A DNA stretch of 49,164 bases from Parcubacteria group bacterium Greene0416_36 (GCA_007375725.1 VMEV01000010.1:1-49164); one strand, 5' to 3'; counted from the stretch's first letter, positions 15,272-46,559 are shown. Numbers and translations are program-made. Notes: generated by a model not told the origin, from the sequence alone.

Positions 15272-15351
15272 AATTACGAATTACGAATGACGAATTACGA
15301 ATGGATCAGCCAGTTGTTCAATTCGTAATTCGTAATTTCTAATTCGTAATT
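15272..15351. repeat. Inverted heptamer tandem repeats (AATTACG/CGTAATT); related tracts at 29008-29073, 36032-36135, 43235-43268, 43633-43666, 45147-45178 and 46520-46548
   Basis: aattacgaattacgaatgacgaattacgaat ... attcgtaattcgtaatttctaattcgtaatt. Confidence 0.8.
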
Positions 15352-16789: not shown

Positions 16790-17047
16790 TTATTCTATTT
16801 TAAGATTTTTTATAAAATCCATGTAGTAACCTTCAGCGAGTTCAATTTCCTGAAGTGGAATCTTATTCGATTTTTTTGCAAAAGCATGAAGCAATATAAT
16901 CTGCCTTGGATGATACAATATATAAAAAATTCTATAATTTATTCCATGGATCTCATCTCTTAGTGCCCAAACTTTAACAGGTATCTGGCCATTTGTTTTC
17001 TTATAAAAACAAAGACGCCAAGAATCTTCTAAAGGAATCATACACAT
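16790..17047 (-). CDS. RelE/ParE-superfamily (Gp49/HigB-like) toxin, apparently internally deleted
   Basis: FY...NG..PV and YRIFY......IILLHAFAKKSNKIP..EIELA motifs present; only 85 aa. Confidence 0.65.
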   Translation of the reverse strand: MCMIPLEDSWRLCFYKKTNGQIPVKVWALRDEIHGINYRIFYILYHPRQIILLHAFAKKSNKIPLQEIELAEGYYMDFIKNLKIE

Positions 17048-17081
17048 AATATTAACTCATTAGTTAATTTTAGTCAAAAAA

Positions 17082-17121
17082 AAGACAAGTCTTCATCCCA
17101 TGTAGGTGAGGGCTTGTCTTT
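17082..17121 (-). terminator. Intrinsic terminator after efp
   Basis: aaagacaagtcttca...tgagggcttgtcttt stem followed by a U-run on the minus strand. Confidence 0.7.
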
Positions 17122-17149
17122 TAAAAAAGGAATTTGTTTGATTGTTTGT

Positions 17150-17713
17150 TTATTTCTCCTCCTGCTCACGTCCGACGTATTCCCGATTCTCGGTATTGAT
17201 GATCACGACTTCGCCTTCTTTGATGAAGAGCGGCACATTAATGGTGGCTCCGGTTTCGAGCTCGGCCTGCTTCATGACGGCTCCGGCGCTGTCTCCTTTG
17301 ACCCCGGGAGCGGTATTGACCACTTTGAGCGATACTTTCTTGGGAAGAGAAATGGTCACCAAATCATCCCCCAAAAAGAGTCCGTCCACCTTGGCTTCGG
17401 CCACGAGAAACTGGCCGTCTTCGCCTACCGCTTCGGTGCTAACCTGAAACTGCTCAAAATTGTCGTCCATGAAATAATAATTCGTGGCGTCTTTGTAAGT
17501 GAATTGCATGGCACGGCGAGTCACATCCGCCTCCTGTACGACTTCGTCCGATCGGAAGGTAACTTCGAGCGTCTTGCCATTTTTGACATTGCGCATCTTG
17601 ATGCGGCACATCATGCGGCGCTGAGCCATTTTGGAACGGTTCACCTCGGAAACGATCCAAGGATCATTCTCGTACATCATGGCCATTCCTTTGTGAAAAT
17701 CTCCGGCAGTCAT
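17150..17713 (-). CDS. efp: Translation elongation factor P
   Basis: YFMD.NFEQ, TAPGVKGDSA...K.AELETG..I.VPLFI.EG...I.T....Y..R. Confidence 0.95.
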   Translation of the reverse strand: MTAGDFHKGMAMMYENDPWIVSEVNRSKMAQRRMMCRIKMRNVKNGKTLEVTFRSDEVVQEADVTRRAMQFTYKDATNYYFMDDNFEQFQVSTEAVGEDGQFLVAEAKVDGLFLGDDLVTISLPKKVSLKVVNTAPGVKGDSAGAVMKQAELETGATINVPLFIKEGEVVIINTENREYVGREQEEK

Positions 17714-17842
17714 AAATTAGGCTATTAGGCATTAGCTTCTTAGCTTTTTAGAAGACAAAGTAACTAATCCGAAATGGATATAAAAAATAAAAATCTACTT
17801 ATAAACCTATATAATTAAGACCAAATTAGCCTTTTTGGGAGG

Positions 17843-17881
17843 AAAAAGCAAATCCTCGAGAGGAAGTTTCCAATCGAGGAT
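17843..17881 (-). terminator. Terminator closing array 1
   Basis: ATCCTCGA...TCGAGGAT stem followed by TTGCTTTTT on the minus strand. Confidence 0.6.
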
Positions 17882-17888
17882 ATATTTC

Positions 17889-18865
17889 GCCAAATAGATT
17901 TGGCATAAACAAAAATTCGAATTAAAGCGCAAAATATTAGTAAACAAGAAAGAAATTTGTTATAAAACTTCGCGAGAAAATTCTCGCCTCAAAACTAATT
18001 CAACGCATTATAATCTGCAGAAATTCGAAATATAGTGAGGGATAGTACGTCGATACATTAAAGAGTACTGCCTATTCGAGACCTAAAAAAAAGTCTCCAG
18101 TAACTTAAAAGGCTACAATTAAATCTACGCTACTGGACCGTAGTCCGGTAGGGATATCATCATCCGTCCTTTATAAAAGGACCAGAACCATAATCTAATA
18201 AAAAACAAGACGTTCAACATAAATCCGTAGAAAACATGCCGAGCTTCGAAAAGCTCCTAGGCATTAAAACAGGGTGAAACACGGCAAAGGGACCTACAGA
18301 ACACTGATCCAAAATCCCACAACTTTCATGTCTATTATGACCAGACACCTTAAACGAACAATAATGTGCGGCAACACAATCCGAACTACGACACTTAACT
18401 TGGATATCCGAGCAAAAATGCTCCTGAAAAGTAGAGAAATCTGAAACAGTGAACAGGACCCTAGGGGACCAAAATACACTACACATCCGTCCGAAGAATT
18501 CGGACCAATAATAAACCGCAGACTGCAGGAAACAAATATAGGACATCTCGCAGGACATTGATTTCGCCCTTGATAAAAGGGCCAGAAGAACAATTTATCT
18601 TACTTTAAGATAAGATAATTTAATAAATTACAAGGCAAATAAATACATACCGAGCCAATGAAGGCTCCTTGGCACTACAATAAACTAAAGTAAAACAGAC
18701 CATAGTAATCTAAAGGACGCCACTCCATCCGCGAGCAAAGACTCGCCAAAAATCTAAATGACCGCAAGCTAAACCAAGGGAAATAAAACCAATAAGCCCA
18801 AAGGCAAACAATCCGAGAACGAAAAGCTCTCCTATGCAATATTCTTCCTAAACAAACAGAAAGGC
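17889..18865 (-). ncRNA. Putative guide-RNA array 1: 12 hairpins and 11 complete pentamer-periodic tracts
   Basis: Hairpins start at 17889, 17972, 18078, 18166, 18241, 18328, 18410, 18489, 18566, 18652, 18731 and 18815. After each of the first 11, the + strand has a purine every 5 nt for 10-16 steps, starting exactly 5 nt from the stem. No credible ORF. Confidence 0.85.
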
Positions 18866-18890
18866 CTTTTCAAAGAACAGCAACCCAATA

Positions 18891-18919
18891 AATCTAGTCT
18901 AATAGCCAAAGAATGTCAA
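18891..18919 (-). promoter_or_regulatory. sigma70 promoter for array 1
   Basis: Minus strand TTGACA-17 nt-TAGATT, followed by boxA-like TGTTCTTTGAA (18869-18879). Confidence 0.75.
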
Positions 18920-18930
18920 TCCTCCCAACG

Positions 18931-18970
18931 AAAAAACAGCTTATTTTGTTCAATAAGCTGTTTTCTGTTT
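18931..18970 (-). terminator. Intrinsic terminator after the helicase gene
   Basis: aaaacagcttatt-ttgttc-aataagctgtttt. Confidence 0.7.
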
Positions 18971-18996
18971 CTTCTAAAAAACAAAAAGTAATATAG

Positions 18997-21030
18997 TTAT
19001 TTCTTCAAAAACGCACGGGCATCCAGACAACAATCTGCAAAGGTTTTGCCAGATATATAAGAGGTTCTTAGCTTTTCAGGGAGGGCGTAATAGACAAGCC
19101 CCTTAAATCTCTGATCATAACAGATCGTAACGGATTTGATTTTCCCGTCGCGTTCCGTACGGCCGCGGGCTTGCTTGATACGGATCTTGACCAGCCATTG
19201 ATGGATAGCGAAAGCGCCGTTTTTGCCGAACTTGCGATTCTCGAACTTCGACTCGGGAGAATTCGGATCAGGGTATCCAGGACGAAGGGTGATCACTACT
19301 TGAGCCAGACCATCCGGCAAGTCAATCCCTTCGGAAAAATTCTGCTCCGTACCGAGTAAAACCATGCCTTTGCCACCGCGAAACAATTCCACAGCTTCTT
19401 TGGGAGTTTTCGGCATAGTACCCAGCATCGCATCCGATCTCGGACTATTCGAACTGCGACCTCGGGAATAAGTGATGACATCGAGATTTTCTTTGTCCGG
19501 AGAGGAATAGAATAAGAACTTATCCAACTCTTGATGCGATCCAACCAGAACTAAAACACGAATCCCTTCGGCGTTAAAAAGTTTGCATTCCTTAACAATA
19601 CTTTCCAGGCTCTTGGCAGGTTCTCTATCCGAACGCACACTGTAAGCCAGACTCGGAGTGTCGCTCGGCATATAAATACGGGTGTTCTCAGCCGGGAAAC
19701 CGGATTCGAGAAAAAGATACTGAGGAAAATCAATGCCGGAAATATACCCAAAAACAGTACGGTCGCCAATGGTGGCGGACATCGCCAAAGTTCGGGACAA
19801 AAGCACTTTCTTACGAATCAGAGGCCTCACATGATGGGACTGGATGGTAAGGCGATTGATGACTTTTGGCCCCCTTCCTCCGTATTCTTCTTCTGGAATG
19901 GGTTCAGACACAAAATAACTGAATACATAGTTGAGTGCCATGTGCTTGATTTCATCATTTTCTTCCTTGGGAATAGCATAACGAAGGGACTGGATGTACC
20001 TCCAAAGATTGAAAAGAAGATTCTGCACCTCATTGAGAGCTTCGCGCCCTCCTTCCGCTTGGCTCGCCATTTTCTCCAATTCATTTTTTTTGGATTCCAA
20101 AGGAGAAGTGTCAATGGCTTCCAAGGCTTTGATGAGTTTTTTGATTTCATCATCTTCCAAGACGATTTTGGTGAAAGGAGGCTTATTCCTAGATACGATT
20201 TTCTTGAACACAACGAGAAATTTCTTGAGAGAGACGGACACACTTTCGTCCACTTTCTCCACGACCTCAATCGCGCGTTCTAAATGCCAGTCAGTAATAT
20301 CGTAAGAGAGGACATTGCGCACCAGTGGCGTGATATTGTGAACTTCATCCAGGACCACCGCGTCATGATCTTCCCAAACCCCTTTCTCGCTTTTAAAAAG
20401 CCTCATGATCAAATAAAAGGCATACGTGGTCACAACAATTCCCTCGTACTGCTTAGCCGCATATTTATGAGCATAATACGGACAGGGAACCGCCCCTTCT
20501 TCAAGAGTTTTTCCAGTCGCCTGATCCACCCGATGACCGCAGCTTCGCAGTATCGCACAAGGAATTTCATTGGCTTTCCACGCCGGCTTTTGATCCGGAT
20601 AATAAAGACAATCATGAGACTCTCTGCCTTCGAGCACAAATACCATATCCGAAAAACGCTTAGCGATTTGTTTGGCTTGAGCCAAATTGGGCACCACGTA
20701 GAAAATTCGTTTATAGCCATGCAATTTCCGAAGAACTGAAAGCCACACGATACCAATGAGAGACTTGCCGACGCCAGTTTCTCCCTCCAATAAAACTTGA
20801 TCATGGCCTTGGGATAGAAAACGAAAAGCCTTGAGCTGAGCCTCTCTCATTCGGAAATAACGCGGAATATGCCAAGGAAAACACTCCACATAAGGAGCCA
20901 ATGCCGGATTGGCAGCGACTTCCACAGCAAGCATTTCTCTTGTATACCCTTCCTGAGGCGATTCTTGTACGATCGGAATAGGGGAAGGTGTATCTGCAAT
21001 TGAACCCAATAATAATTGATCCGCCATCAT
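18997..21030 (-). CDS. DinG/Rad3-family SF2 helicase with probable FeS-binding cysteines
   Basis: GETGVGKS (motif I), DEVH (II), SAT (III), EGIDLP (V), QARGRTER (VI); GRESHDC...PC....C...PCPYY cysteine cluster. Confidence 0.88.
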   Translation of the reverse strand: MMADQLLLGSIADTPSPIPIVQESPQEGYTREMLAVEVAANPALAPYVECFPWHIPRYFRMREAQLKAFRFLSQGHDQVLLEGETGVGKSLIGIVWLSVLRKLHGYKRIFYVVPNLAQAKQIAKRFSDMVFVLEGRESHDCLYYPDQKPAWKANEIPCAILRSCGHRVDQATGKTLEEGAVPCPYYAHKYAAKQYEGIVVTTYAFYLIMRLFKSEKGVWEDHDAVVLDEVHNITPLVRNVLSYDITDWHLERAIEVVEKVDESVSVSLKKFLVVFKKIVSRNKPPFTKIVLEDDEIKKLIKALEAIDTSPLESKKNELEKMASQAEGGREALNEVQNLLFNLWRYIQSLRYAIPKEENDEIKHMALNYVFSYFVSEPIPEEEYGGRGPKVINRLTIQSHHVRPLIRKKVLLSRTLAMSATIGDRTVFGYISGIDFPQYLFLESGFPAENTRIYMPSDTPSLAYSVRSDREPAKSLESIVKECKLFNAEGIRVLVLVGSHQELDKFLFYSSPDKENLDVITYSRGRSSNSPRSDAMLGTMPKTPKEAVELFRGGKGMVLLGTEQNFSEGIDLPDGLAQVVITLRPGYPDPNSPESKFENRKFGKNGAFAIHQWLVKIRIKQARGRTERDGKIKSVTICYDQRFKGLVYYALPEKLRTSYISGKTFADCCLDARAFLKK

Positions 21031-21123
21031 TTTTTCCTTTCAGGAAAATTAATAAGAAACAAACTAAAACACGAACAGGTTCATTCAATCAGAAAACCCA
21101 TAATTTGTAAAGACTCGTCCAAT

Positions 21124-21153
21124 AAAAAAACACTCTCTTGGCGAGAATGTTTT
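21124..21153 (-). terminator. Possible terminator/attenuator between the RAMP-like gene and the helicase
   Basis: Minus strand aaaacattctc-gccaa-gagagtgtttt, then ttt. Confidence 0.5.
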
Positions 21154-21186
21154 AATTGTCCAATATTTCACTATAAAATCTATCGA

Positions 21187-22053
21187 TTATGTTTTTCCGG
21201 AATTCGCAGGAAGAGAAACTCCTTCCTTCACTTCTTCCTCTTCCATTTTATACGGAAGCGAAATGTATTCATAATCGTCTTCTTTCAAGAGTTCTTTCTT
21301 TACTTCTTGCACACGAACAATCTTGAAGGTACCGTTGGTGCCGTTACAGTTTACACGATAGGACCCGATTCCATAGATCACACCGCCGTTTTTGAGGCAT
21401 TGAAGCGCGATATCGATAGTCTTGGGACCCAAACGATCTTTGACTTCGCAGAGGAATTTGATCTGGGTGCCTTCGGGGTATTCGGGACGCACAATGCGGC
21501 AAGTGATTTCAGCTTTTGGAATAACACCGCGGTCTTCATTGACACGGAATTTTTCCTTTCCGACAATGCACATTTCCTGATCCACAAATTCGGCAGTATA
21601 CCCCAAAATCCTGAAAAAAGAACCGATAATGCTTCCGCTGGTCTTGGTGGAAACTTTCTTGCGATTGCCCAAATCCACATCACATCCCCCGCAACGAGTA
21701 GCCGCATAAATCCACTTGGCAGGCACGCCCGATTTACCAGAATCAGGATCGATCCACACTTTTTTCCTGGCAATTTCTATGCCCGGAAGCCCTTTTACCT
21801 TAACTTTCTTATCAGCAGAATCGATTTCCAATAATTTCTCTGGAGTCATCGGATCGCCCAAAAGTGGAGAGGTCGTTTGGATCGTGATTTCCAAAATGGT
21901 GATATATTTGGTTCCATACGAAACAGGAGAGGAACCTTTCTTTTCCTTTTTCTTCCCCTTTTCAGCGCTCGCCGCACTATCAGCAACGGTTTCAACCACG
22001 GGAATCGGTTCAGTCGCGACAGCAGAGGAACTATCATTTTTTTGTCTAGCCAT
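21187..22053 (-). CDS. Stand-alone RAMP/Cas7-like protein (288 aa)
   Basis: AAGGAG RBS before ATG 22053. LEITIQTTSPLL first strand, G.P...I.AA helix, RPEY...T.I.F and a C-terminal glycine-rich loop GG..YGIGSYR....G..GTF, which is the RAMP/Cas7 layout. Judged by eye, no HMM run. Confidence 0.75.
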   Translation of the reverse strand: MARQKNDSSSAVATEPIPVVETVADSAASAEKGKKKEKKGSSPVSYGTKYITILEITIQTTSPLLGDPMTPEKLLEIDSADKKVKVKGLPGIEIARKKVWIDPDSGKSGVPAKWIYAATRCGGCDVDLGNRKKVSTKTSGSIIGSFFRILGYTAEFVDQEMCIVGKEKFRVNEDRGVIPKAEITCRIVRPEYPEGTQIKFLCEVKDRLGPKTIDIALQCLKNGGVIYGIGSYRVNCNGTNGTFKIVRVQEVKKELLKEDDYEYISLPYKMEEEEVKEGVSLPANSGKT

Positions 22054-22112
22054 GCTAGATCTCCTTAAAAACAAAATACTCAATCTACACAAAACACTAA
22101 AAAATAACAATC

Positions 22113-22353
22113 GAGGTTCAAAGACCCCCTTTACAATACACTACTTAAAAATAAACAGATGAAAAATGAAGGAACATACTCTATTTCGAGGTTAAAACCT
22201 CCAAAACATTAACTTACGAAACAACAAATTAATTAACACCGTTTTAAAGAAATCAATAAAACAGTATATACCGCCCGCATAATGCAGGCCTAAACCTCAC
22301 AGGGATTGACGCAAATCCGCGCAATTATACTCAGAGGTAATCTGCAGGAAAAT
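22113..22353 (-). ncRNA. Putative guide-RNA array 2 (3 units) in the leader of the RAMP-like gene
   Basis: Hairpins 22113-22128, 22188-22201 and 22273-22289; purine every 5 nt on + for 11, 13 and 12 steps from 22133, 22206 and 22294; G.U pairs form only on the minus strand. Confidence 0.82.
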
Positions 22354-22499
22354 TGTCGTTCTAATTGTAAAGAACGTGTTCATCCAAGCATAACCCCAAA
22401 TACTTGTCAAATCTTCCAGGATATGCTTCAATGATGAGTCCAATGTAATTTCAGACCGAGAGACTATAAAACAAATTCCAATCAAAACAGGAGAAACAA

Positions 22500-23489
22500 A
22501 TGAACGATATCGCAACAAGACCAGTACGCGAAAAGAGTCCATGGACCGTGGCCTTTGAAAACAGAAAACATCTCGGAGATTTTTCTACCCCAGCTTGGAA
22601 ACAGGCATATGGTATTATCAATAAAGATTTTTCCAGATTCGAAATACTCGACTGCCCAAATAAAGCGGGACTTACCATTGACTGCGGGCACGCCAGAATC
22701 AAAAACCAAGCAATCGGGATAGAAGGAAACACCTTAATGGTGCACATCTCCGATGTCGCAAGCTTCATTCCCAAAGACAGCCCTCTGGATGTCGAAATGC
22801 AGAGCCGAGTCATATCCATACAAAATTCCAGGATTCTCCCCTTCCGGTTAGCAAAGGAACAGTTCTCGCTGGAACAGAATCAGAAAACCAAATGCCTCAC
22901 GTTCCAATGGGCATTCGATGAATACGGAGAAATCAATCAGTTGCGACGAAAAATATACCATTCCAATGTCGAGGTCCCGATATCGATTTCATTTGAACAA
23001 GCCGATGGCATCCTCGAGGATCCTCTACACAAATACCACCCAGTCATACGAAGCCTCAAATCGATCGGAGAACATCTGGTCGACCTGCGCATCCGCAATG
23101 AGTGGACATTCACGCGCGAACGAAAAAAAACATGGGTGGAAAAAAACGGACAATGGATTTTCACAGACTATATCGACGGGTCTCAATCCCCCAATGACTG
23201 GATCATGCAGGAGGTCATGATTCTAGTGAATTACACCGTGGCATCCCTGTTAGACCAATTGGGTATCCATGGATGCTACACCGATCCCTATCGCTCTCCC
23301 AATGGTATCCGCTATTGCCAAGCCACAGCCCCCATGCATAATTTGGAAGATCTTGTAAATCAAAGGATTCTATTGGCATTATTATCACTCGGGAAAATTC
23401 CTATACCCTATACCCTGGAAGAAATGGAGGAAATCAAAACCAAAACCAATCGCATGTACTTCGCCCGATCTTCGGGAGGGAAAAAATAA
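22500..23489 (+). CDS. RNB (RNase II/R catalytic)-domain protein, predicted inactive
   Basis: TID...LMVHISDVASFIP.DSPLD.E..R..S, FSL, EVMILVN and ATAPM..LEDLVNQRIL match RNB motifs; the catalytic DxDD is replaced by IKNQ. Confidence 0.75.
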   Translation: MNDIATRPVREKSPWTVAFENRKHLGDFSTPAWKQAYGIINKDFSRFEILDCPNKAGLTIDCGHARIKNQAIGIEGNTLMVHISDVASFIPKDSPLDVEMQSRVISIQNSRILPFRLAKEQFSLEQNQKTKCLTFQWAFDEYGEINQLRRKIYHSNVEVPISISFEQADGILEDPLHKYHPVIRSLKSIGEHLVDLRIRNEWTFTRERKKTWVEKNGQWIFTDYIDGSQSPNDWIMQEVMILVNYTVASLLDQLGIHGCYTDPYRSPNGIRYCQATAPMHNLEDLVNQRILLALLSLGKIPIPYTLEEMEEIKTKTNRMYFARSSGGKK

Positions 23490-23500
23490 AAAACAAACAA

Positions 23501-23661
23501 TTCTGTCCTGTCTATTTGCCTAGATCAAAACAAACTAAATTTGAATTTAGGTCCTTTATAATAAAGGACGAAAAAATTTCACATTATTCACGTCAAACAA
23601 ACCTAATTCACGTGGACTTAATTTCATTCCTGTTCGTCTCTGAGCCTCTCTAATCGAGGCT
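23501..23661 (+). ncRNA. Putative guide-RNA array 3 (2 units), opposite orientation, downstream of RNB-like gene 1
   Basis: Pyrimidine every 5 nt at 23501-23546 (10 steps) and 23588-23638 (11 steps); each tract ends 5 nt before a hairpin (23551-23569, 23643-23661) that is followed by GAAA/GGAAAT. Confidence 0.78.
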
Positions 23662-23668
23662 GGAAATC

Positions 23669-23717
23669 AAAAAGTAGCTTCTTCTCAAATTTCAGAAAAA
23701 GCTACTTTTATTTTTTT
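23669..23717. terminator. Bidirectional terminator between convergent arrays 3 and 4
   Basis: AAAAGTAGCTT...AAGCTACTTTTATTTTTTT. Confidence 0.7.
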
Positions 23718-23718
23718 C

Positions 23719-23957
23719 AGCCCCCAGAGAGGGCTCTTGAATATACTATAATTTAGAGTGCCTGAAAGAACAGAACAATAAGGCACGGAAAAGCAAACCG
23801 CGTTTTTAGAAAAACGCCAACACTTAACTCTTGATCGAAATAAAATAATACACAGGAATAAACTATAATAGAACAGCATCCGAGTATGGTGAGTACTCCT
23901 AGAATTGAATGGAATTTACAACAAAGGACAATGATGAGCACCAATCTACAGTAAAAG
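23719..23957 (-). ncRNA. Putative guide-RNA array 4 (3 units)
   Basis: Hairpins 23719-23735, 23800-23817 and 23882-23898; purine every 5 nt from 23740 (12 steps), 23822 (10 of 11) and 23903 (11). Confidence 0.82.
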
Positions 23958-23966
23958 TACCCAATG

Positions 23967-23995
23967 AAACTAGCAATTGGATAGAGGGATGTCAA
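23967..23995 (-). promoter_or_regulatory. sigma70 promoter for array 4
   Basis: Minus strand TTGACA-17 nt-TAGTTT with TG extended -10. Confidence 0.7.
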
Positions 23996-24081
23996 GAGCA
24001 AGCCCTTGTACAATCGATCCGGATATGCTTCAATACTCTCGATTTTCAGTATATTTATCTCTCATTTTAAGGAGTCCAAAA

Positions 24082-25029
24082 ATGGCTAAAAATGGCCAAA
24101 AAAAGAAGATCAACTGGAAAGAGTATTTTGAAAAAAGACAGAATTCGTATCTGTCGGATGCGTCACGCGAAGAATTCGTCAAACATCTGCATTCTGCAGC
24201 ATCCGAAAATAAAAAAATAGAAAGGACAATAATCACCAGCATCACATTCGACAAGGAAATCTATATGAATGAGGCGATACTGATCGAATATCCCTATATT
24301 CATATCAGCGTCCCGGATATAGTCAGTCTCGTTACTCCCAAGAAGACACTGGATAAAGAATTGTACGAGAGAGCCTCTTCCGTTAAAGATAACCCTCTTT
24401 TTCCGGAAGATCTCATCAACCTTCGATCCTCTTTCAAGCATGATGAACTTCGAAATGCTTATACTCTCTCTTGGAAATTTGGCGATGCCGGAGAAATTCA
24501 AGAACCCAAATTTTATCCCAGCCAAATTCTATCAATTGGATATATCCAACCTTCGCCAAGCGCTGAAGCTAAAGACTATCCCAAGAACTTGGAACAAATC
24601 GGACTAAAACTCATTGATCGCAGAATCAAAACGTTTCAGCTCTTCAAGAAAGAGGAAAAATTGCCAGTTGCAGAGAAAGAAGGCTATAAAATTTTCGAAT
24701 GCTACCTCAGAAACTCCACCATGAGCTGGGTTGAAAAAGAACTTGCCATCTTTGCCAATATCCAAGCTGGGGAACTATTTCATCAGAAAGGCATAGCCGC
24801 ATGTTTTGCCTCTCCCTATGGTTCTCCCTGTGAAACCCACTATGCTCCCATCATGCGGCCGCTGGATTCCTATCGAGATCTCATCAATCAGCGAGCACTC
24901 TTGTCAATTTTCACCGGACTCAAAAAGGATTTCCCCTATACTCCCGCGCAGATAGCGAAAATAAATGAAAGGATTCAAACACGGTACAGCGCGTGGAAAA
25001 ATCTAGAAAAGAAAAATTCTAATCTATGA
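24082..25029 (+). CDS. Second RNB-like protein (paralogue), predicted inactive
   Basis: AAGGAG RBS before ATG 24082; IHISVPDI...LD.E..ERASSV, ELAIFAN and HYAPIMRPLDSYRDLINQRAL; catalytic aspartate motif lost. Confidence 0.7.
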   Translation: MAKNGQKKKINWKEYFEKRQNSYLSDASREEFVKHLHSAASENKKIERTIITSITFDKEIYMNEAILIEYPYIHISVPDIVSLVTPKKTLDKELYERASSVKDNPLFPEDLINLRSSFKHDELRNAYTLSWKFGDAGEIQEPKFYPSQILSIGYIQPSPSAEAKDYPKNLEQIGLKLIDRRIKTFQLFKKEEKLPVAEKEGYKIFECYLRNSTMSWVEKELAIFANIQAGELFHQKGIAACFASPYGSPCETHYAPIMRPLDSYRDLINQRALLSIFTGLKKDFPYTPAQIAKINERIQTRYSAWKNLEKKNSNL

Positions 25030-25056
25030 AATTGATCGGTTTCCAAAAAAACCATC

Positions 25057-25100
25057 AAAAAAGTAGCCGATATTTAACCATCAGGCTACTTTTATTTTTT
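25057..25100. terminator. Bidirectional terminator between RNB-like gene 2 and array 5
   Basis: AAAAGTAGCC...GGCTACTTTTATTTTTT, nearly the same as 23669-23717. Confidence 0.7.
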
Positions 25101-25102
25101 CC

Positions 25103-25482
25103 GTGGATTGAATCCACCTGCACACAAATTGATTATGGCTTGAGTCAAGGCAATCCGAAATAATATAGAGAAATCTACGATAATTCAAAAAACAGAACAG
25201 CAATCCGCGCTCTTTTCTAAAAGCGCCTTAAATTTACATTAAATCAATGTAAGTTACACCGGTCGAGACTAAAGAGGTACAATTCGCCTGATAAGTCAGG
25301 CCAGCGATAAAAACCAACTCAAACTACATAAATCTGATATACGTAAATATGACGAAACCATTCGCGTCTGAAAAGACGCCTAGACAAGAAAGCAACGAAA
25401 TCAACACTAAGCCAAATAACAGAACAATAATCCGCGCCCCATTCAATGAGCGCCTACAATAAAAACAAGATTAAATAGAAAA
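25103..25482 (-). ncRNA. Putative guide-RNA array 5 (5 hairpins; 4 complete tracts plus a short leader tract)
   Basis: Hairpins 25103-25117, 25207-25226, 25286-25301, 25364-25379 and 25434-25453; purine every 5 nt from 25122 (17 steps), 25231 (11), 25306 (11), 25384 (10) and 25458 (5). Confidence 0.85.
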
Positions 25483-25505
25483 CACAACAAATTAAGAACT
25501 CATCA

Positions 25506-25534
25506 AACTTATACAATCAATCAATGATTGTCAA
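25506..25534 (-). promoter_or_regulatory. sigma70 promoter for array 5
   Basis: Minus strand TTGACA-17 nt-TAAGTT, then boxA-like GTTCTTAA. Confidence 0.7.
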
Positions 25535-25539
25535 GGGTG

Positions 25540-25571
25540 TGTCGCAAAAACATAATAATGTCTTTGCGACA
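25540..25571. promoter_or_regulatory. Palindromic operator-like site TGTCGCAA-N16-TTGCGACA (second copy at 34375-34406)
   Basis: Identical half-sites and spacing at two loci, each between back-to-back TTGACA boxes. Confidence 0.65.
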
Positions 25572-25577
25572 AAATTC

Positions 25578-25606
25578 TTGACAATTGATTTTAGAAAATT
25601 TATAAT
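25578..25606 (+). promoter_or_regulatory. Consensus sigma70 promoter of the mazEF-like operon
   Basis: TTGACA-17 nt-TATAAT. Confidence 0.85.
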
Positions 25607-25629
25607 ACACACAAATAATGTGTAAAGAT

Positions 25630-25890
25630 ATGTCAACTATCACACTCTCACCCAATACGAAAGAACGCATCAATGTCATGCTTCCACGACGGATCATCCG
25701 TTCGATCGGCCGTCTATCGAAAAATAGAAAACGAAGCCAATTCATCGCAACCGCGGTCGATTTTTATATTGATTCAATGCAAAACAAAAAACTCAAATCT
25801 CTTCTACAAGAAGGAGCGCAAAAAAGATCCGAAAGAGATCAGATAATCACCGAAGAAATGGGCCTCATCGATACGGTTTATGAAAAATAA
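25630..25890 (+). CDS. Ribbon-helix-helix antitoxin (MazE/EndoAI-like)
   Basis: RINVMLP...I......RSQFI..AV pattern; overlaps the start of the toxin gene. Confidence 0.8.
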   Translation: MSTITLSPNTKERINVMLPRRIIRSIGRLSKNRKRSQFIATAVDFYIDSMQNKKLKSLLQEGAQKRSERDQIITEEMGLIDTVYEK

Positions 25891-26248
25891 GACCCTTTTC
25901 CCAAAGCGAGGCGAAATATATCTCGTCAATTTTGATCCTACAGTAGGAGCGGAGATGAAAAAAACACGGCCGGCTCTCATTTTACAAAATGATATTGCAA
26001 ACAAATATAGCGCCATAACCATCATCGCAGCAATCACCTCTCAATTCGAACTGCCTCTCTACCCTACTGAAGTTTTATTGGACTCTTCCGCATGCCGGCT
26101 AGACAAAGAATCAGTCATAGTACTCAATCAAATCCGATCCATCGACAAAACACGCCTGATCAAAAAAATCGGAGAAATTCCAGCGAAGTCATTACAGCAA
26201 ATAGAAATAGCACTAAAAATAAGCCTGGGTCTTATAAAGATAGAATAA
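25880..26248 (+). CDS. mazF: PemK/MazF-family toxin endoribonuclease
   Basis: KRGEIYLVNFDPTVGAE.KKTRPALILQND..N, QIRSIDK.RL. Confidence 0.93.
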   Translation: MKNKTLFPKRGEIYLVNFDPTVGAEMKKTRPALILQNDIANKYSAITIIAAITSQFELPLYPTEVLLDSSACRLDKESVIVLNQIRSIDKTRLIKKIGEIPAKSLQQIEIALKISLGLIKIE

Positions 26249-26361
26249 AATCCTCCTCGATTTCGGGAGGGTTTTGTTTTCATCCCCCTTGCCAGCCTCC
26301 CTCCCTTTCCACTAATCTAAACCCAGAATCGGAGACCCCCCTAATAAGCTAAAGCCTAGTT

Positions 26362-28950
26362 ATGTCCGAACCCACACCCATGCTACGCCAGTATTTTGAG
26401 ATCAAGCGCCAGCATCCGGACTCGATCGTGATGTTTCGATTGGGGGATTTTTATGAGATGTTTGGGGAGGACGCGAAGGTGGCGTCGAGGATTTTGGGGA
26501 TCACCCTCACGGCTCGTGGACGCGGGACGGAGAATGAGATCGCCATGTGCGGCATCCCCCAGCATAATATCACCGTGCATGTGGGGAAACTCACAACCGC
26601 CGGAAAATCCGTGGCGATCTGCGACCAGACCAGTGATCCGAATCTGCCGGGAATAGTGGAGAGGAACGTGACAAGAGTGGTCACGCCAGGAACCACGCTC
26701 GACTCGAGCAATCTGGACGAGAAAAAAAATAATTATATCGTGGCGATCATAGCCCAAAAAGGACGATACGGTTTGGCCCTCGCGGATCTGGGAACCGGAC
26801 ACTTTCAGGCAACAGAAATTGACGGCGGAGAAGAGCTGACCCAACAAATACAAAAACTCCGCCCCAGCGAGGTACTTCATGACGGGGAGCCTCTCTCCGG
26901 ATCTTTTTTCCAGAAAGAATTCCATCTGCCGGACTGGGAAGGACCCAAGACACTATTTGCGGCGCAGTTTGGCAGGCCCGATCTCTCAGGATTCGGCTTT
27001 ATCAATATGCCTTTGGCCGAAGAGGCGGCGGCGATTCTGCTTTATTATCTCAAAAATACCCAAAAAACCGCGCTCTCCCATATCGACTCCATTTCTCGCT
27101 ATGTCTGGGAAGACAAAATGATTCTGGATGCCTCGACCATCCGCAATCTAGAATTGTTTGAAAATAATTACGACCGGAGCCGGAATAATACCCTGTTCTC
27201 AATTTTGGATTTCACGGCCACCTCGATGGGGGCTAGAGTTTTACGAAACTGGATCACCTTGCCCCTCGGAGACAAAGACCGAATAGAAGAGCGCTCCGAA
27301 GGAGTCGAGTGGCTCTCTAAAAACAAAGAAGCAAGAACCGCGGTCAAAGAGCATCTGGACAAAATAGCGGACATCGAAAGAATCTCCGGGCGTATCGGAT
27401 GCCTGCGCGCCGGGCCCAAGGATCTGATTGCCATGGCTCACTCTCTTCGAGAAATTCCAGAGATTAAAGAAATACTCAAACCCTCCCAAGAATCAGCGAA
27501 TTCAATATTAAATAAGCTGGAAAAAGAATTGGATCCAATAGAACCGGTGGGCGAACTTATCGCCAAAAGTATTGCGGAGGAGCCTCCTGCGCTCGTTTCG
27601 GACGGCGGAGTGATCCGCAATGGATACAATCCAGATCTTGACCTACTCCGGTCCATTTCCAAAGGCGGCAAGGACTGGATCGGGGAATTTGAGACACGGG
27701 AAATCGAAAAAACAAAAATTTCGTCGCTCAAGGTACGGTACAACCGTGTCTTCGGGTATTATATCGAAATTTCAAAAACCAATTTGGACCGCGTCCCGCC
27801 CCATTATATCCGGAGGCAAACCCTCTCCAATGCTGAACGCTTCACGGTCGAAGAGCTCAAGAATTACGAAGACAAAATATTGGGAGCCGAGGCGAAAATT
27901 TTGTCGCTGGAAAATGAACTATGGAATCAAATAATCGGACAAATTTCCAAATATTTGGGAGAGATCAAAAAACAATCGCATTTGCTGGCTGAGATCGACG
28001 CCCTCTATTCCCTGGCGGAATGCGCCTACCAGCGGAATTATACCAAACCCGAATTCGTGGAATCCGACGAAATTCGGATTGAAGAAGGACGCCACCCGGT
28101 CATCGAGACCTTACTTCCAGCGGGCACCTACATCCCAAATGACACTCTTTTGAATAACCAAACCCACCAATTCATTTTGCTCACTGGCCCCAATATGGCC
28201 GGTAAATCCAGCTATCTTCGGCAAGTGGCTCTCATCTTGCTCCTCTCCCACATCGGCAGTTTTGTGCCGGCTAAAAAAGCCGCGGTCTCAATCACCGACC
28301 GTATTTTCACGCGCGTTGGAGCCGAGGACCGCCTCTCGGAAGGGCAGTCCACCTTCATGGTGGAAATGCAGGAGGCCTCCAATATCATTCATAACGCGAC
28401 TGGAAACAGCCTTATTTTGCTCGACGAGCTGGGTCGCGGCACCAGCACTTACGATGGAGTGTCTTTGGCCTGGGCCATCTCGGAATACATCCACAATCAT
28501 CTCAAAGCCAAAACCATTTTTGCGACCCACTATCATGAACTCATCGAGTTCGCGAATTCTCTTCCTCGCGCGAAAAATTATTCCGTGGCCGTGTCGGAAC
28601 ATAAAGGAGGCGTGGTATTTCTCCGAAAAATTATTCCTGGCGGGATCAATAAAAGCTACGGCATTGCCGTAGCCGCGCTCGCCGGGCTCCCCAAACAAAT
28701 CCTCGAGCGAGCCCATGAACTACTGGCGGATCTAGAAGGACAAATCCATCTGGGAAGCAAACCCAAATCCAATCAAACCGCCCTCCCCTTTTTCGCTCCC
28801 CCGCCCAAATCCGATCCAGCAGTAGAAACGGTCCTTCTCGAAATCAAAAACATCGATATCAACCAAACCACGCCGATGGAGGCGATGAGGAAATTGGAGG
28901 AGTGGAAAAATAAGCTAACAAACAACAAATCCCCCTTAATCCCCCTTTGA
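26362..28950 (+). CDS. mutS: DNA mismatch repair protein MutS
   Basis: TPMLRQY, FRLGDFYEMF, TGPNMAGKSSYLRQ, DELGRGTST and ATHYHEL motifs. Confidence 0.98.
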   Translation: MSEPTPMLRQYFEIKRQHPDSIVMFRLGDFYEMFGEDAKVASRILGITLTARGRGTENEIAMCGIPQHNITVHVGKLTTAGKSVAICDQTSDPNLPGIVERNVTRVVTPGTTLDSSNLDEKKNNYIVAIIAQKGRYGLALADLGTGHFQATEIDGGEELTQQIQKLRPSEVLHDGEPLSGSFFQKEFHLPDWEGPKTLFAAQFGRPDLSGFGFINMPLAEEAAAILLYYLKNTQKTALSHIDSISRYVWEDKMILDASTIRNLELFENNYDRSRNNTLFSILDFTATSMGARVLRNWITLPLGDKDRIEERSEGVEWLSKNKEARTAVKEHLDKIADIERISGRIGCLRAGPKDLIAMAHSLREIPEIKEILKPSQESANSILNKLEKELDPIEPVGELIAKSIAEEPPALVSDGGVIRNGYNPDLDLLRSISKGGKDWIGEFETREIEKTKISSLKVRYNRVFGYYIEISKTNLDRVPPHYIRRQTLSNAERFTVEELKNYEDKILGAEAKILSLENELWNQIIGQISKYLGEIKKQSHLLAEIDALYSLAECAYQRNYTKPEFVESDEIRIEEGRHPVIETLLPAGTYIPNDTLLNNQTHQFILLTGPNMAGKSSYLRQVALILLLSHIGSFVPAKKAAVSITDRIFTRVGAEDRLSEGQSTFMVEMQEASNIIHNATGNSLILLDELGRGTSTYDGVSLAWAISEYIHNHLKAKTIFATHYHELIEFANSLPRAKNYSVAVSEHKGGVVFLRKIIPGGINKSYGIAVAALAGLPKQILERAHELLADLEGQIHLGSKPKSNQTALPFFAPPPKSDPAVETVLLEIKNIDINQTTPMEAMRKLEEWKNKLTNNKSPLIPL

Positions 28951-29008
28951 CAAGGGGGAAACTGCTCCCTCCCTTGTCAAAGGGAGGGCTGGGGAGGGAT
29001 TTGTTGTT
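28921..29008. repeat. Dispersed palindromic element (CCCC(T)TTGACAAGGGG family); copies at 895-926, 39323-39392 and 47962-47999
   Basis: aacaacaaatcccc.ttaatccccctttgacaagggggaaac...gagggctggggagggatttgttg, nearly identical at 39323. Confidence 0.75.
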
Positions 29009-36028: not shown

Positions 36029-36194
36029 AAAAATTAAGAATTTCAGAATTAAGAATGAAGAATTAAACAGCCCTGCTTTATTTGCTGTTTGTTGCTCATT
36101 CTTAATTATTCATTCTTAATTTTTAATTAATTTAACTCTTCCCCACCTTATACACTTCCCCAAGCCATACCTACGGAGTTAATCTGGTACCGAT

Positions 36195-39271: not shown

Positions 39272-39494
39272 TACCCAATTTAAATAACCCATTATCAATT
39301 AAAAGCCTTTTGAAAATAGCCTAACAACAAATCCCCCTTAGTCCCCCTTTGACAAGGGGGAAACAGCGCGAGGGTTGGGGAGGGATTTGTTGCTGGAGCA
39401 TTCAGATGTTTTTGATAATTGACTAATTGAATTTGGTATAAAGAGATATCGCAATAAAAAGTAGGAGCTGACGCACAGGTCAGCCCCTGCTTTT

Positions 39495-43230: not shown

Positions 43231-43258
43231 AACAGAATTAAGAATGAAAAATGAAGAA

Positions 43259-43624
43259 TTAAGAATTATCACGATCTTCTTTTTTTGAAGTCTTTAAAAT
43301 AGTGACTATAATACTCAAAATTTCATTTATTGCATTTAGAAAATAAACAGATAGTTTTTCATTTAAATAGCCGGAATCTTTCAAAAGCCTGATCCAATAG
43401 AGAGTTTCTCTTGCTTCTTTATAAGCAATTGTCATTTTGGCAACAAAATCTCTTTTTGATTGTGCGCCCTGTGCCTCTTCAACATTTGCGCCAATAGAAG
43501 TCCCACTTCTCAAAACCTGCCGCGATAAAACGAATTCTTTATCTTTCGCCACTAATTGCTGAGCTAGCTTCACAATCTGGATTGCAAAATAATAACTTTT
43601 TTCTTGAATAATATTTTCTTTCAT
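43259..43624 (-). CDS. Four-helix-bundle (23S rRNA IVP-like) protein
   Basis: LSRQVLRSGTSIGANVEEAQGAQS..DF..K..IA.KEARET.YW; flanked by heptamer repeats. Confidence 0.9.
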   Translation of the reverse strand: MKENIIQEKSYYFAIQIVKLAQQLVAKDKEFVLSRQVLRSGTSIGANVEEAQGAQSKRDFVAKMTIAYKEARETLYWIRLLKDSGYLNEKLSVYFLNAINEILSIIVTILKTSKKEDRDNS

Positions 43625-43652
43625 ACTGCTGTTCATTCTTAATTCTTCATTT

Positions 43653-44888
43653 TTAATTCTTAATTTGAAACACCCTCTTCACTTTCCCAATCGCCTTTAT
43701 CAACTCATCCACATCTTTCTCCGTATTATAAATATAAAACGACACGCGCGCCGTGGCCTCGGTCTTCCATACCCCCATCATGGACTGAGAGCAGTGGTGG
43801 CCAGCGCGGATGGCTATTCCGAAAGTATCGCAGATGGTGGCGATGTCATGAGGGTGCACGCCGCGAATGCCAAAAGAAATAATGCCTCCGCGACTGATCA
43901 TGTCCATGGGGCCGTAAATTTCGACGCCTGAAATTTTCTGGATCTCCCCCAAAGCATACTCGGTCAATTGTTTTTCATGTTCAAAAACCGCGCCCATGCC
44001 AATGGCCGACAAATAATCCACGGCAACGCCAAGAGCCACGGCCTCGGCAATCGGCGGGGTGCCGGCTTCGAAGCGCTCGGGAACATCGGCCCAAGTGGAC
44101 TCAGTCAGATGCACTTCTCGGATCATGCCTCCCCCTCCCTGATACGGTTCCATTTGAAGGAGCAGGTCCTTCTTGCCCCATACGACTCCGATTCCCGTGG
44201 GCCCCAGCATTTTGTGGCCGGAAAAAACGAGAAAATCGCATCCGAGACGCGCAACAGAAACCGGCATATGTGGCACACTCTGCGCGCCATCTAAAATTAA
44301 CAAGGCCTTTTTCTCTCGAATCCAAGGTACTATTTTCTCGACCGGATGAATCACTCCGGAAGAATTCGAGGCATGCGCCACAGACACGATTTTAACCGGA
44401 AGGGTCTTTATTTTATTTTGAAAATCCCCCAGATCCCAGCGTCCCTCTACTGTCATTTTCACCGCCTCCACAGTAAAGCCAAAAATCTGCGAGGCCAATT
44501 GCCATGGAACTAAATTAGAGTGATGCTCGCCTCCCGAAACCAAAACCACATCGCCTTTCTTCAGGAATGTTTTCCCCAGTGAAAAAGCCAAAAGATTCAG
44601 GCCCTCGGTCGCATTTTTAGTGAAAATAATTTCTTTGGCATCTTTAGCTCCAATAAACCGAACTACTTTTTCTTTCGCCTCTTCGTATTTCGCAGTCGCC
44701 TGTTCGGACAAAGAGTAAACCCCGCGATGCACATTGGCATTATCTTTCCTATAAAAATTCGAAATCGACTCAATCACCGCCTTCGGCTTCTGCGTGGTGG
44801 ACGCATTATCCAGATAAACCAAAGAATAACCATTGGATTTGGTTTTTAAGATTGGGAAGTTGGATTTTATGTGTTTTGTGTCAAGCAT
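43653..44888 (-). CDS. sufS: Cysteine desulfurase SufS
   Basis: YLDNASTTQKP, EHHSNLVPW, FSGHKMLGPTG and RAGHHC motifs. Confidence 0.95.
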   Translation of the reverse strand: MLDTKHIKSNFPILKTKSNGYSLVYLDNASTTQKPKAVIESISNFYRKDNANVHRGVYSLSEQATAKYEEAKEKVVRFIGAKDAKEIIFTKNATEGLNLLAFSLGKTFLKKGDVVLVSGGEHHSNLVPWQLASQIFGFTVEAVKMTVEGRWDLGDFQNKIKTLPVKIVSVAHASNSSGVIHPVEKIVPWIREKKALLILDGAQSVPHMPVSVARLGCDFLVFSGHKMLGPTGIGVVWGKKDLLLQMEPYQGGGGMIREVHLTESTWADVPERFEAGTPPIAEAVALGVAVDYLSAIGMGAVFEHEKQLTEYALGEIQKISGVEIYGPMDMISRGGIISFGIRGVHPHDIATICDTFGIAIRAGHHCSQSMMGVWKTEATARVSFYIYNTEKDVDELIKAIGKVKRVFQIKN

Positions 44889-45127: not shown

Positions 45128-46346
45128 AGGGCACATGGATCTGCCGAATTCGTAATTCGTCATTCGTAATTCGTAATTTATTCTGTAGCAGCTCCCTCAC
45201 ATCCTCATTCGGACACGCGTCGATGATCTCGCCCAGGAATCCGCCGATCAGCACCGAACGAGCCTCGTCTCTCTCAAGTCCGCGACTCTGGAGATAGAAT
45301 AACCGGTCGGCGTCAAGCTGGGTAGTCGAAGACCCATGCTTGGCTCCCACGTCATTGGTATGCACGCGAAGAATCGGCAGGGATCGCTTCTTGGCAGAAG
45401 CCGACAATTGTAATCCTGATTCCACCAGATGCGCATTGGAAAGTTTCGCGTCTTTGGAAAGTTCCAAATCCCCCACAAAATCGATGAAAGCTGATCCGTC
45501 GAGAGTGCCTTTGACCACAATATCAGAAGTGGACCTCTCGGCCATGTGATGAGCATTGGCAATAATGGAAATTTCATCCGTACCTCCCGCGCGATACAAA
45601 CCGCGGTAAGAATACTCCGCCTTCTCCCCCGCCAAATACGCCTGATTGAAGATGCGCGCGGCCGGACAATTGAAAGAGGCGCCCCAGACTCGGCAGGAAG
45701 CATTGGCCTCCAAGAAAATCTCGCGCGTGAAAAAAGACTTGGCCTGGCACTCATTATAAAAATTAGAAATCTCGAGTGCCACTCCCTCGCCCACAAAGAC
45801 ACGGTCCAGGCCAAAAGACATCGGCAACTCTTTCGGCTCGGCTCCGGAAGACACGGTGATTTGGGCGGCCACACCCGATTCGACCACCCAGGCCACGACA
45901 AATCCCAGAGGCGCGCTTTGATGGTAATGCATAAAAAAATGGCGCGTCTCGTGCTCGGCGGAAACCAATACCAAACCGCCCGAAGAAAAGACGGCCAAGT
46001 TGGCTAGGACCATGATATCCGAGTCTTGCGAAATATTATGAAAGATATAATTCGAAAAAAATTCCAGATTCTTCTCCAGTTCCGTGTACTCCAAAAAATT
46101 CATGTCGATGTTTCCAGCCGCGGAATCAATGCTCACAACCTCGCCAGCGCTGATCTCCAGAGGCTCGCTCAATTTTTCTTCTTTTCCCAACAACATTTCC
46201 AAAGCGGCCAACTGTTCCTTGGTGAATTTTTTCTCTTTCAAAAGTGAGAACGCAAAATCACGGCCTTCTTTGATAAAGCGAGGCTCGCGGCGTGTTTGAT
46301 TGAGATTATCTTTAATAATTTTGATTTGAGAAATGATGTGTTGCAT
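45102..46346 (-). CDS. sufD: Fe-S assembly protein SufD
   Basis: P.L.V...DV.AKHGSS...D...LFYLQSRGL....A...LI.GF; between sufB and sufS. Confidence 0.88.
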   Translation of the reverse strand: MQHIISQIKIIKDNLNQTRREPRFIKEGRDFAFSLLKEKKFTKEQLAALEMLLGKEEKLSEPLEISAGEVVSIDSAAGNIDMNFLEYTELEKNLEFFSNYIFHNISQDSDIMVLANLAVFSSGGLVLVSAEHETRHFFMHYHQSAPLGFVVAWVVESGVAAQITVSSGAEPKELPMSFGLDRVFVGEGVALEISNFYNECQAKSFFTREIFLEANASCRVWGASFNCPAARIFNQAYLAGEKAEYSYRGLYRAGGTDEISIIANAHHMAERSTSDIVVKGTLDGSAFIDFVGDLELSKDAKLSNAHLVESGLQLSASAKKRSLPILRVHTNDVGAKHGSSTTQLDADRLFYLQSRGLERDEARSVLIGGFLGEIIDACPNEDVRELLQNKLRITNDELRIRQIHVPSPSSPRAP

Positions 46347-46504: not shown

Positions 46505-46559
46505 TAACTCCGCAGGCTGTTCATTCTTAATTCTTAATTTTTAATTTTGCATTTGTTGC

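Follow-up and report, generated by a model that had tools for sequence, protein, structure and literature searches.

Why would a small bacterial genome carry, one after the other, two shortened genes of the RNase II (RNB) family whose products appear unable to cut RNA? The question is raised by a 49,164-nucleotide (nt) stretch of DNA from Parcubacteria group bacterium Greene0416_36 (GCA_007375725.1 VMEV01000010.1:1-49164), referred to here as the window, which is contig C22 of a 1.03-Mb genome of 25 contigs (G000) with a completeness score of 100%. The two genes lie on the plus strand: ORF1 (22500-23489) encodes 329 amino acids (aa), and ORF2 (24082-25029) encodes 315 aa from its ATG, or 350 aa from an alternative TTG start at 23977; their stretch holds no other long frames. 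An earlier note on this DNA had described the pair, with the same coordinates and lengths, as catalytically dead, stand-alone RNB paralogues embedded among arrays, and had proposed for them a non-catalytic role, possibly beside a neighbouring RAMP protein. The question has three parts: (i) whether the proteins could still be nucleases; (ii) whether they are kept for a function or are on their way to being lost; and (iii) whether they belong with the hairpins and the Cas7-like gene that surround them. Our analysis argues for maintained, catalytically disabled RNB proteins; their link to the RAMP gene is one of adjacency only.

Fold, architecture and catalytic residues of the RNB pair

Both proteins are members of the RNB superfamily by homology and by fold, the fold being predicted and modelled for ORF1 alone. 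Against Pfam RNB (PF00773), which has a curated gathering cut-off of 29.3 bits, ORF1 scores 93.3 bits (E 2.3e-26) and ORF2 56.1 bits (E 4.6e-15), and a comparison of one with the other gives 30% identity over 261 residues (E 3e-33). For ORF1, AF2 modelling from a 62-row alignment gave a pLDDT of 86.4 and a pTM of 0.84. When this model was compared with the PDB by Foldseek, there were 44 matches at E <= 0.001, every one of them an RNB protein, among them RRP44, RNase R, Dis3L2, RNase II together with its D209N form, D. radiodurans 2r7d and the Ssd1 pseudonuclease 7am1. The values for RRP44, RNase R and RNase II run from 1e-18 to 1e-15 (best 2.9e-18; TMq 0.61-0.73), the range extending to 1e-13 if 7am1 is included. 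An identical ORF1 sequence is present in the Atlas, where its model has a TM of 0.76-0.81 to RNB clusters.

What remains of the enzyme is the core domain. A Pfam scan at E <= 1 found no CSD, S1, wH or HTH domain in either protein (besides RNB, ORF2 has two sub-threshold matches that we judge to be chance), and the NCBIfam models for RNase R, RNase II and their superfamily reach only 20-47 bits against cut-offs of 369-642, through the RNB part only. Ten full-length relatives compared by tblastn with positions 17000-26500 matched nothing outside the RNB region, and the flanks of the two genes therefore hold no accessory-domain remnants. The core itself is shortened. For this and the following comparisons we used a MAFFT alignment that included 59 RNB proteins from among the 150 top-scoring hits of a search of representative sequences. 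From the Asn of 'ILAN' to motif IV there are 32, 32 and 29 residues in ORF1, ORF2 and a third paralogue of the same genome (ORF3, described below), as against 45-133 (mostly 61-107) in these comparators. By this alignment the segment missing before motif IV amounts to about 40 residues relative to relatives; in a HMMER pairwise alignment with B. subtilis RNase R, some 80 residues of the latter (472-553) are without a counterpart in ORF1. Judged from residue offsets, the deletion would span the tri-helix wedge of RNase R, the lysine of which is K544 in E. coli and K550 in M. genitalium according to a review (PMC12320835). On all these points, namely RNB membership, the absence of cold-shock and S1 domains, and the central shortening, the earlier description of the pair is borne out.

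The same review describes how RNase II holds a Mg ion through D201 and D210, uses two further aspartates as the general base and clamps its substrate between Y253 and Y313 (PMC12320835). With E. coli RNase II numbers assigned to the alignment columns by offset, the four acidic positions of motif I read D-I-N-Q in ORF1 and D-gap-N-E in ORF2, as against D-D/E-D-D in 56 of the 59 comparators; the three that deviate are two fragments and a protein, P0052, to which we return below. At the D209 position both paralogues have Asn. The first Asp is kept in ORF1 (D61) and may be kept in ORF2, in which MAFFT aligns TFD with TID and then places a 2-residue deletion. Motif IV is APMHNL in ORF1 and RPLDSY in ORF2 (SP[IL]R[RK] in 58/59), the arginine pair (R-R/K in 58/59) being replaced by H-N and D-S, respectively, and by R-S in the third copy. 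In the pairwise alignment of ORF1 with B. subtilis RNase R (8cdu), TIDCGHARIKNQA stands opposite TIDGADAKDLDDA, and TAPMHNLEDL opposite TSPIRRYPDL.

The losses extend beyond these two motifs. There are 42 columns that are at least 80% conserved in the comparators, and ORF1 keeps 26 of them and ORF2 21. The lost positions comprise the equivalents of D207, D209, D210, Y253, the YRxQ Arg, the His and Ser before motif IV, and R500/R501. The Y253 column (Y in 58/59) is deleted from both proteins, and the Y313 column (Y in 57/59) has F165 in ORF1 and Y154 in ORF2, an aromatic residue being kept. Also retained are the structural motifs HIxD, LD..R..S, E.MILAN, P...DL..R and PY. Because the equivalents of D207, D209 and D210 are gone, neither protein has what the two-metal mechanism requires according to that review (PMC12320835), and in both every tested feature of an active RNase II or RNase R is lacking or incomplete: motif I, motif IV, the tyrosine clamp and the flanking domains. 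The earlier note had the motif-I aspartates lost; this holds for three of the four positions and not for the first, which ORF2 as well as ORF1 probably keeps. Its loss of the SPIRRY arginines is found in both proteins.

Distribution, history and signs of maintenance

The paralogue family is an orphan in the collections searched. A profile built from the three paralogues matched 8055 proteins at E <= 0.001 among 1.84 billion representatives, but only the three paralogues themselves scored better than 1e-30, and the next best protein reached 108 bits. The best ordinary relatives, at 96-108 bits, are proteins of 650-700 aa with the architecture wH_RNase_II + HTH_RNase_II + RNB + RNase_II_C_S1. 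A word-based homologue search with ORF1 returned ORF1 alone, on 4 contigs, and the profile had no match in 40 relatives. In metagenomes it found 40 loci of at most 38% identity. At 35 of these the RNB protein is full-length and has both motifs, four more are cut off by the end of a contig, and at the remaining one, L032 (810 aa), both motifs are absent by pattern match. Since none of these searches gave close relatives, the family is an orphan, and one that stands in a class otherwise without RNB: 2 of the 301 class genomes have the Pfam domain, namely the present one and G159, where it is canonical and full-length, as compared with 11 of 14 control genomes. The class thus appears to manage with neither RNase II nor RNase R; G000 encodes PNPase and RNase J. 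No other genome of the taxonomic family of G000 is among the 301 sampled from the class, and the paralogue family is known from one uncultured genome.

The third paralogue, ORF3, is on another contig of the genome (G000:C19:44362-45129, minus strand, equal to L003:1327-2088), where positions 54-308 of the profile are matched and Pfam RNB scores 40.8 bits, above its cut-off. It follows directly on a glycosyltransferase gene, has no hairpin cluster nearby, and is interrupted by three in-frame TAA codons across the motif-I region; what is left is a frame of 224 or 193 aa ending TAPMRSY...NQRAIL...PYT. From its sequence ORF3 looks like a decaying or truncated copy.

ORF1 and ORF2 have in common the same deletion, the Asn at D209, the loss of the arginine pair and the PYT signature. 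Because these derived characters are shared, and because the two are placed as sisters in a tree (below), truncation and inactivation would have come before duplication. Activity was probably lost first, to be followed by duplication and fast divergence. The divergence between the two copies is large: nonsynonymous divergence (dN) is 0.80 and synonymous divergence (dS) is saturated and not computable, with 91 of 306 aligned residues identical and the same codon used at 45 of those 91.

Both frames have nevertheless stayed open through this divergence and have kept the flanking elements of genes, as the earlier note had pointed out. They run to 329 and 315 codons, and none of the other five frames exceeds 126. 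Each is preceded by a Shine-Dalgarno sequence, AGGAG at 22489-22493 (+) for ORF1 and AAGGAG at 24069-24074 (+) for ORF2, with a spacing of 6-7 nt to the ATG. Farther upstream each gene has a 30-nt block of repeat family D9, at 22403-22432 (+; TTGTCA-N17-TTCAAT, promoter-like) and at 24005-24034 (+; TTGTAC-N17-TTCAAT). The two blocks are 80% identical over the 30 nt and contain the same 14-mer, GGATATGCTTCAAT, which occurs in the 1.03-Mb genome, allowing up to 1 mismatch, only at these two sites (22419 and 24021). The blocks are candidate promoters, although a scan for consensus promoters did not have them among its calls. After each gene there is a putative terminator of repeat family D2, read from the sequence as a hairpin with a T-run: AAAAGTAGCT ... 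AGCTACTTTT ATTTTTTT at 23670-23717 (+) behind ORF1, and a second at 25059-25100 (+) behind ORF2. The consensus terminator scan listed neither hairpin, and passed over the one at 23670-23717 because its loop is longer than 8 nt. The G+C content of the region is below that of its surroundings.

Taken together, the RNB fold, the lost catalytic residues, the intact frames and ribosome-binding sites at synonymous saturation, and the unique 14-mer suggest that a role other than catalysis has preserved both proteins, and we infer on this basis that ORF1 and ORF2 are under selection. The locus was found in four groundwater DNA runs, which belong to one study that is possibly the source of this DNA; the contigs from all four are identical to the window and therefore offer no variation to use.

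The hairpin locus and the Cas7-like/DinG module

The arrays of the earlier note are present in an altered sense. No CRISPR-type array was found in the window by TRF, by a repeat finder or by Rfam, and neither Rfam nor a tRNA scan gave a match of any kind there. What the locus does have is 18 hairpins, all on the plus strand, with a shared flank, cAAT(C/T)C-G...C-C, and with stems that differ from unit to unit. Ten of these form the main array (17972-18835; consensus cAAT(C/T)C-G-stem-loop-stem-C-C; spacing 74-170 nt). One lies between the Cas7-like gene and ORF1 (22188-22201), two between the putative terminator of ORF1 and the upstream block of ORF2 (23800-23817 and 23882-23898), and five 3′ of ORF2 (25103-25453, at 25103, 25207, 25286, 25364 and 25434). 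Under a strict rule, by which perfect-stem hairpins with the flanks C|G...C|C were counted in 2852 nt of non-coding DNA around the genes, there are 16 hairpins on the plus strand and 3 on the minus strand; dinucleotide shuffles gave 0.2 +/- 0.5 (300 shuffles, maximum 3) against the 16 observed. The density is 5.6 per kb, compared with 0.18 per kb-strand genome-wide. Same-strand clusters of at least 3 hairpins number three in the genome, two at this locus and one, of 3 hairpins, on contig C24, and that at 17972-18835 is the largest. The part of the earlier claim that stands is accordingly that of locus-specific arrays, made of variable-stem hairpins and not of CRISPR repeats. We also considered a TIGR-Tas identity for the arrays. 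TIGR units yield 36-nt RNAs and need a Nop-domain Tas protein (PMC12045711); neither units for 36-nt RNAs nor such a protein was seen here, and the identity was rejected.

Two genes on the minus strand separate the main array from ORF1. The first (18997-21030) was called by PADLOC as a DinG-family helicase of the type IV CRISPR-associated, DinG-like kind: it matches typeIV_DinG PDLC01439 at E 6.2e-40 over profile positions 17-566 of 575, and scores 21 bits against NCBIfam cas_csf4, for which the cut-off is 400. The second (21187-22053) encodes a RAMP protein of 287 aa with no family match in Pfam, NCBIfam or PADLOC. Its AF2 model, made with three relatives, is of moderate quality (pLDDT 62.8), and the top Foldseek matches are Csm3 and type VII Cas7 (E 5e-7 to 3e-5), by which the protein looks Cas7-like. 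Between efp and mutS the plausible genes are the helicase, the Cas7-like gene, the two RNB genes and mazEF only, and no Csf1, Csf3 (Cas5), Cas6/Csf5 or CRISPR array of near-identical repeats is found there. The efp/mutS synteny is not conserved in 5 genomes of the same order, so that the borders of an island cannot be drawn.

A word-based search with the Cas7-like protein returned the query alone. In the class, its family occurs in 9 of 301 genomes (about 3%), and a DinG-like helicase lies beside the Cas7-like gene in at least G004, G041, G052, G075, G116 and G264. The recurring module consists of the Cas7-like gene, a type-IV-like DinG and non-coding stretches of about 1 kb with hairpins 75-180 nt apart; its instances are 17730-22110 and 25030-25617 in the window, L015 (G052), L016 (G004), L017 (G041) and L058-L062. 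Non-coding stretches with hairpins are also present in G004, G041, G052 and G264. The stems vary between units in G000, G004, G052 and G264, and in G041 the units are identical repeats of the form AGCCCTCCG-N9-CGGAGGGCT-GTTT. No Cas1/2, Cas5, Cas6 or large subunit was seen in the module. Our literature searches brought up no paper on a Cas7/DinG system of Parcubacteria or of the candidate phyla radiation, and the module may be more novel than the RNB pair.

Genes for RNA enzymes often adjoin the module elsewhere, encoding an NYN-domain protein (G052 and G004), a CCA-adding/poly(A) polymerase-like protein (G075), a LigT 2H phosphoesterase (G264) or RNase Y with YmdB (G179 and G277). Such neighbours, with coordinates L015:5276-5893 (-), L016:4540-5103 (-), L058:6175-7677 (-), L059:3854-4417 (-) and L061:1805-3337 (+), could be chance in small genomes. 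In the window, a MazE-like/MazF (PemK) pair lies directly 3′ of the last hairpin (25578-26248), with a promoter at 25578-25606 that is a perfect match to TTGACA-N17-TATAAT.

Possible roles of the RNB pair

The explanation that we favour, and hold with moderate confidence, is that ORF1 and ORF2 are maintained, non-catalytic pseudo-exonucleases that bind RNA. The two genes, arranged in tandem, would be transcribed separately and encode minimal pseudo-exoribonucleases, each reduced to an RNB core without the domains that feed RNA to it (an N-terminal CSD or wH/HTH and a C-terminal S1). A lineage otherwise without an RNB enzyme probably gained the ancestral gene by horizontal transfer from a bacterium with an RNase II of the wH-HTH-RNB-S1 type; after truncation, inactivation and then duplication, both copies would have been kept as folded, expressed proteins. 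The residual cleft would bind single-stranded RNA without cutting it, as a clamp or protector instead of a nuclease, while actual RNA decay in the cell would fall to PNPase and RNase J. Binding of RNA is suggested by the origin of the fold and by those motifs of the cleft that survive. Among candidate ligands the array transcripts would be the most obvious, because the genes lie inside the genome's only hairpin-array locus, beside the Cas7-like and DinG genes, a tie to the module that is one of position.

Several observations weigh against this explanation. No orthologues were found in the representatives, relatives or metagenomes searched, and purifying selection is not measurable: because there are no close relatives, neither dN/dS among relatives nor a population dN/dS is possible. 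The stops in ORF3 show that the family is not uniformly preserved. The 70-row tree, computed in quick mode, places ORF1 and ORF2 as sisters with an SH-aLRT of 98 but carries an explicit long-branch warning, the end branches of ORF1, ORF2 and ORF3 being 1.71, 2.49 and 3.14 against a median of 0.74 (2-4 times longer); ORF3, with 39% of its columns filled, is placed apart from the other two, and this placement is unreliable. The sequencing runs that hold the locus are the 4 DNA runs of the groundwater study, with no RNA run listed. Because the equivalents of Y253 and R500 and all the anchor domains are lost, canonical binding of 3′ ends may be weak or absent, which argues that any RNA binding would differ from the canonical mode. 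Finally, the Cas7-DinG module lacks an RNB-like gene in 8 of the 8 other genomes that have the Cas7-like family, and the third copy has strayed from the locus; both weaken the link to the module, and of the RAMP association in the earlier note adjacency is what is left.

Some of these points would equally suit decaying relics, that is, an acquired RNase II gene that lost its function and is drifting towards loss, with the open frames as survivors that have no role. The orphan status of the family, its very long branches, the three stops already present in one copy, a class that lives without RNB and related Cas7-DinG modules that need none are all consistent with decay. We consider it rather unlikely, since the copies differ at 70% of residues and are saturated at synonymous sites, yet keep frames of more than 300 codons, Shine-Dalgarno sequences, a predicted RNB fold and structural motifs, along with an identical 14-nt upstream element that is unique in the genome. 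Neutral drift over such a distance would break frames, as at the N-terminus of the third copy, and genomes of about 1 Mb seldom retain 2 kb of dead DNA. At the other extreme, the proteins might still be nucleases that use different catalytic residues. RNB cores alone can be active, ORF1 has the first Asp (D61), and ORF2 has the aligned Asp and a Glu at the D210 position; but with one of the four acidic positions conserved, Asn at D209 in both as in the inactive D209N enzyme, and both motif-IV arginines and the Y253 loop missing, retained activity is highly improbable. A role unrelated to RNA, in which the RNB shell serves as a protein-binding scaffold, a regulator or a decoy, for example in a defence island with MazEF, would fit the loss of most RNA-gripping residues and of all RNA-anchoring domains, the low G+C content and the MazE/MazF genes immediately downstream. 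It is very unlikely in our estimation: the aromatic equivalent of Y313 and much of the motif set that lines the cleft are kept, no result indicates a partner, and MazEF is a complete pair with a perfect promoter of its own.

The remaining possibility concerns the module itself, in which the two proteins would be dedicated accessory subunits of a ribonucleoprotein formed by the Cas7-like RAMP and DinG, binding or measuring the 3′ ends of hairpin-array RNAs. In its favour, same-strand hairpins of the array type occupy every intergenic gap flanking both genes and are clustered elsewhere only on C24; the neighbours are Cas7-like and type-IV-DinG-like; and RNB is foreign to the class, which makes its presence at exactly this place notable. 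There is also a precedent: in a type III-A system, Csm5, a protein of the Cas7 family, recruits RNase R for the trimming of CRISPR RNA (crRNA) 3′ ends (PMC9762709). The likeness lies in an RNB-family protein that works with a Cas7-family RAMP, as the pair here lies beside a Cas7-like gene; the difference is that RNase R is an active housekeeping enzyme encoded elsewhere, whereas the proteins here are inactive, do not belong to type III and are known from adjacency alone. The precedent makes a link between the pair and the module biologically reasonable, and no more. Dedicated subunits seem unlikely to us, because eight of the nine genomes with the module (out of 301) do without an RNB-like gene, the third paralogue lies elsewhere without a hairpin cluster, and an upstream block and a terminator-like hairpin of its own accompany each RNB gene, which is divergent from or independent of the cas-like genes. 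A more specific version, in which the dead RNB proteins are domesticated 3′-end clamps or rulers for the variable-stem hairpin RNAs of an undescribed minimal Cas7-like/DinG system, is distinctly unlikely. The proteins would then represent the RNase R-Csm5 partnership in a naturally frozen, D209N-like state, sitting on the 3′ tail by each hairpin and shielding it from PNPase, without trimming.

Returning to the favoured explanation of maintained RNA-binding pseudo-exonucleases, we compared the pair with three known kinds of RNB protein. The sll1290-like RNases II of the wH-HTH-RNB-S1 type (solved relative: D. radiodurans 2r7d) are the best-scoring relatives and share with ORF1 and ORF2 the RNB fold and the C-terminal signature DL.NQR..L ... 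PY. They differ in being 650-700 aa long, with RNA-binding domains at both ends, D-D-D-D and SPIRRY intact and a linker of 68-80 residues, in contrast to 315-329 aa, RNB only, no catalytic set and a 32-residue linker. The D209N form of E. coli RNase II (2ix1), an engineered inactive mutant that traps RNA, binding without cutting it, is both a structural and a profile match and has the same Asn as the two paralogues; unlike them, it keeps all other catalytic and RNA-binding residues and all of its domains. To our knowledge, pseudo-enzymes of the RNase II family have been established only in fungi, as Ssd1/Sts5 (RNase II/Dis3L2), and Ssd1 (7am1) ranks 39th among the Foldseek matches of the ORF1 model (E 2.9e-13). 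There too catalytic residues were lost and the protein was retained, and Ssd1 keeps CSD and S1, has inserted loops that block the RNB funnel and uses a new surface of the CSD to bind RNA (PMC8934651). ORF1 and ORF2 have instead lost the accessory domains, have a deletion in the core and not an insertion, and are bacterial and of independent origin; they would work in a similar way but are not members of the Ssd1/Sts5 group.

Among bacteria, the loss of RNB catalysis is not unique to this pair, because a clade of Ktedonobacteria-type proteins (P0052, P0152-P0165, P0178, P0180 and P0193), of 400-550 aa, also has no DxDD and no SPxRR; by pattern match, both motifs are absent in 18 of 50 proteins checked. 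This inactive-looking clade is nested in an active RNB-dsRBD clade and is separate from the pair described here (support 100), and is, to judge from the sequences, an apparent second loss in bacteria, independent of the first. P0052 shares 26% identity with ORF1, and its linker is likewise short, at 49 residues. The source names are 'ribonuclease R' and 'RNB domain-containing protein', with one 'hypothetical protein KDW_31050 [Dictyobacter vulcani]', and our literature searches brought up nothing on natural inactive bacterial RNB paralogues, whether ORF1/ORF2 or the Ktedonobacteria type. If our explanation is true, a bacterial, duplicated, RNB-only pseudo-enzyme shows how small a kept RNB shell can be, and provides a compact natural candidate for a binder of RNA 3′ ends. 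The setting adds to this interest, with an otherwise RNB-free lineage, a hairpin-array locus and Cas7-like and type-IV-like DinG neighbours.

The window also has two kinds of short repeats at gene ends. Heptamer runs, AATTACG/AATTCGT and AATTAAG/ATTCTTA, occur there in inverted pairs (15272-15351, 36032-36128, 43234-43268, 43632-43665, 45147-45178 and 46522-46554), and G/C-tract palindromes of the CCCCCTTTGACAAGGGGG and CTCCCTCC..GGGAGGG types, which make up repeat families D3 and D5, are repeated at 28921-29001, 39323-39367 and 47962-47998.

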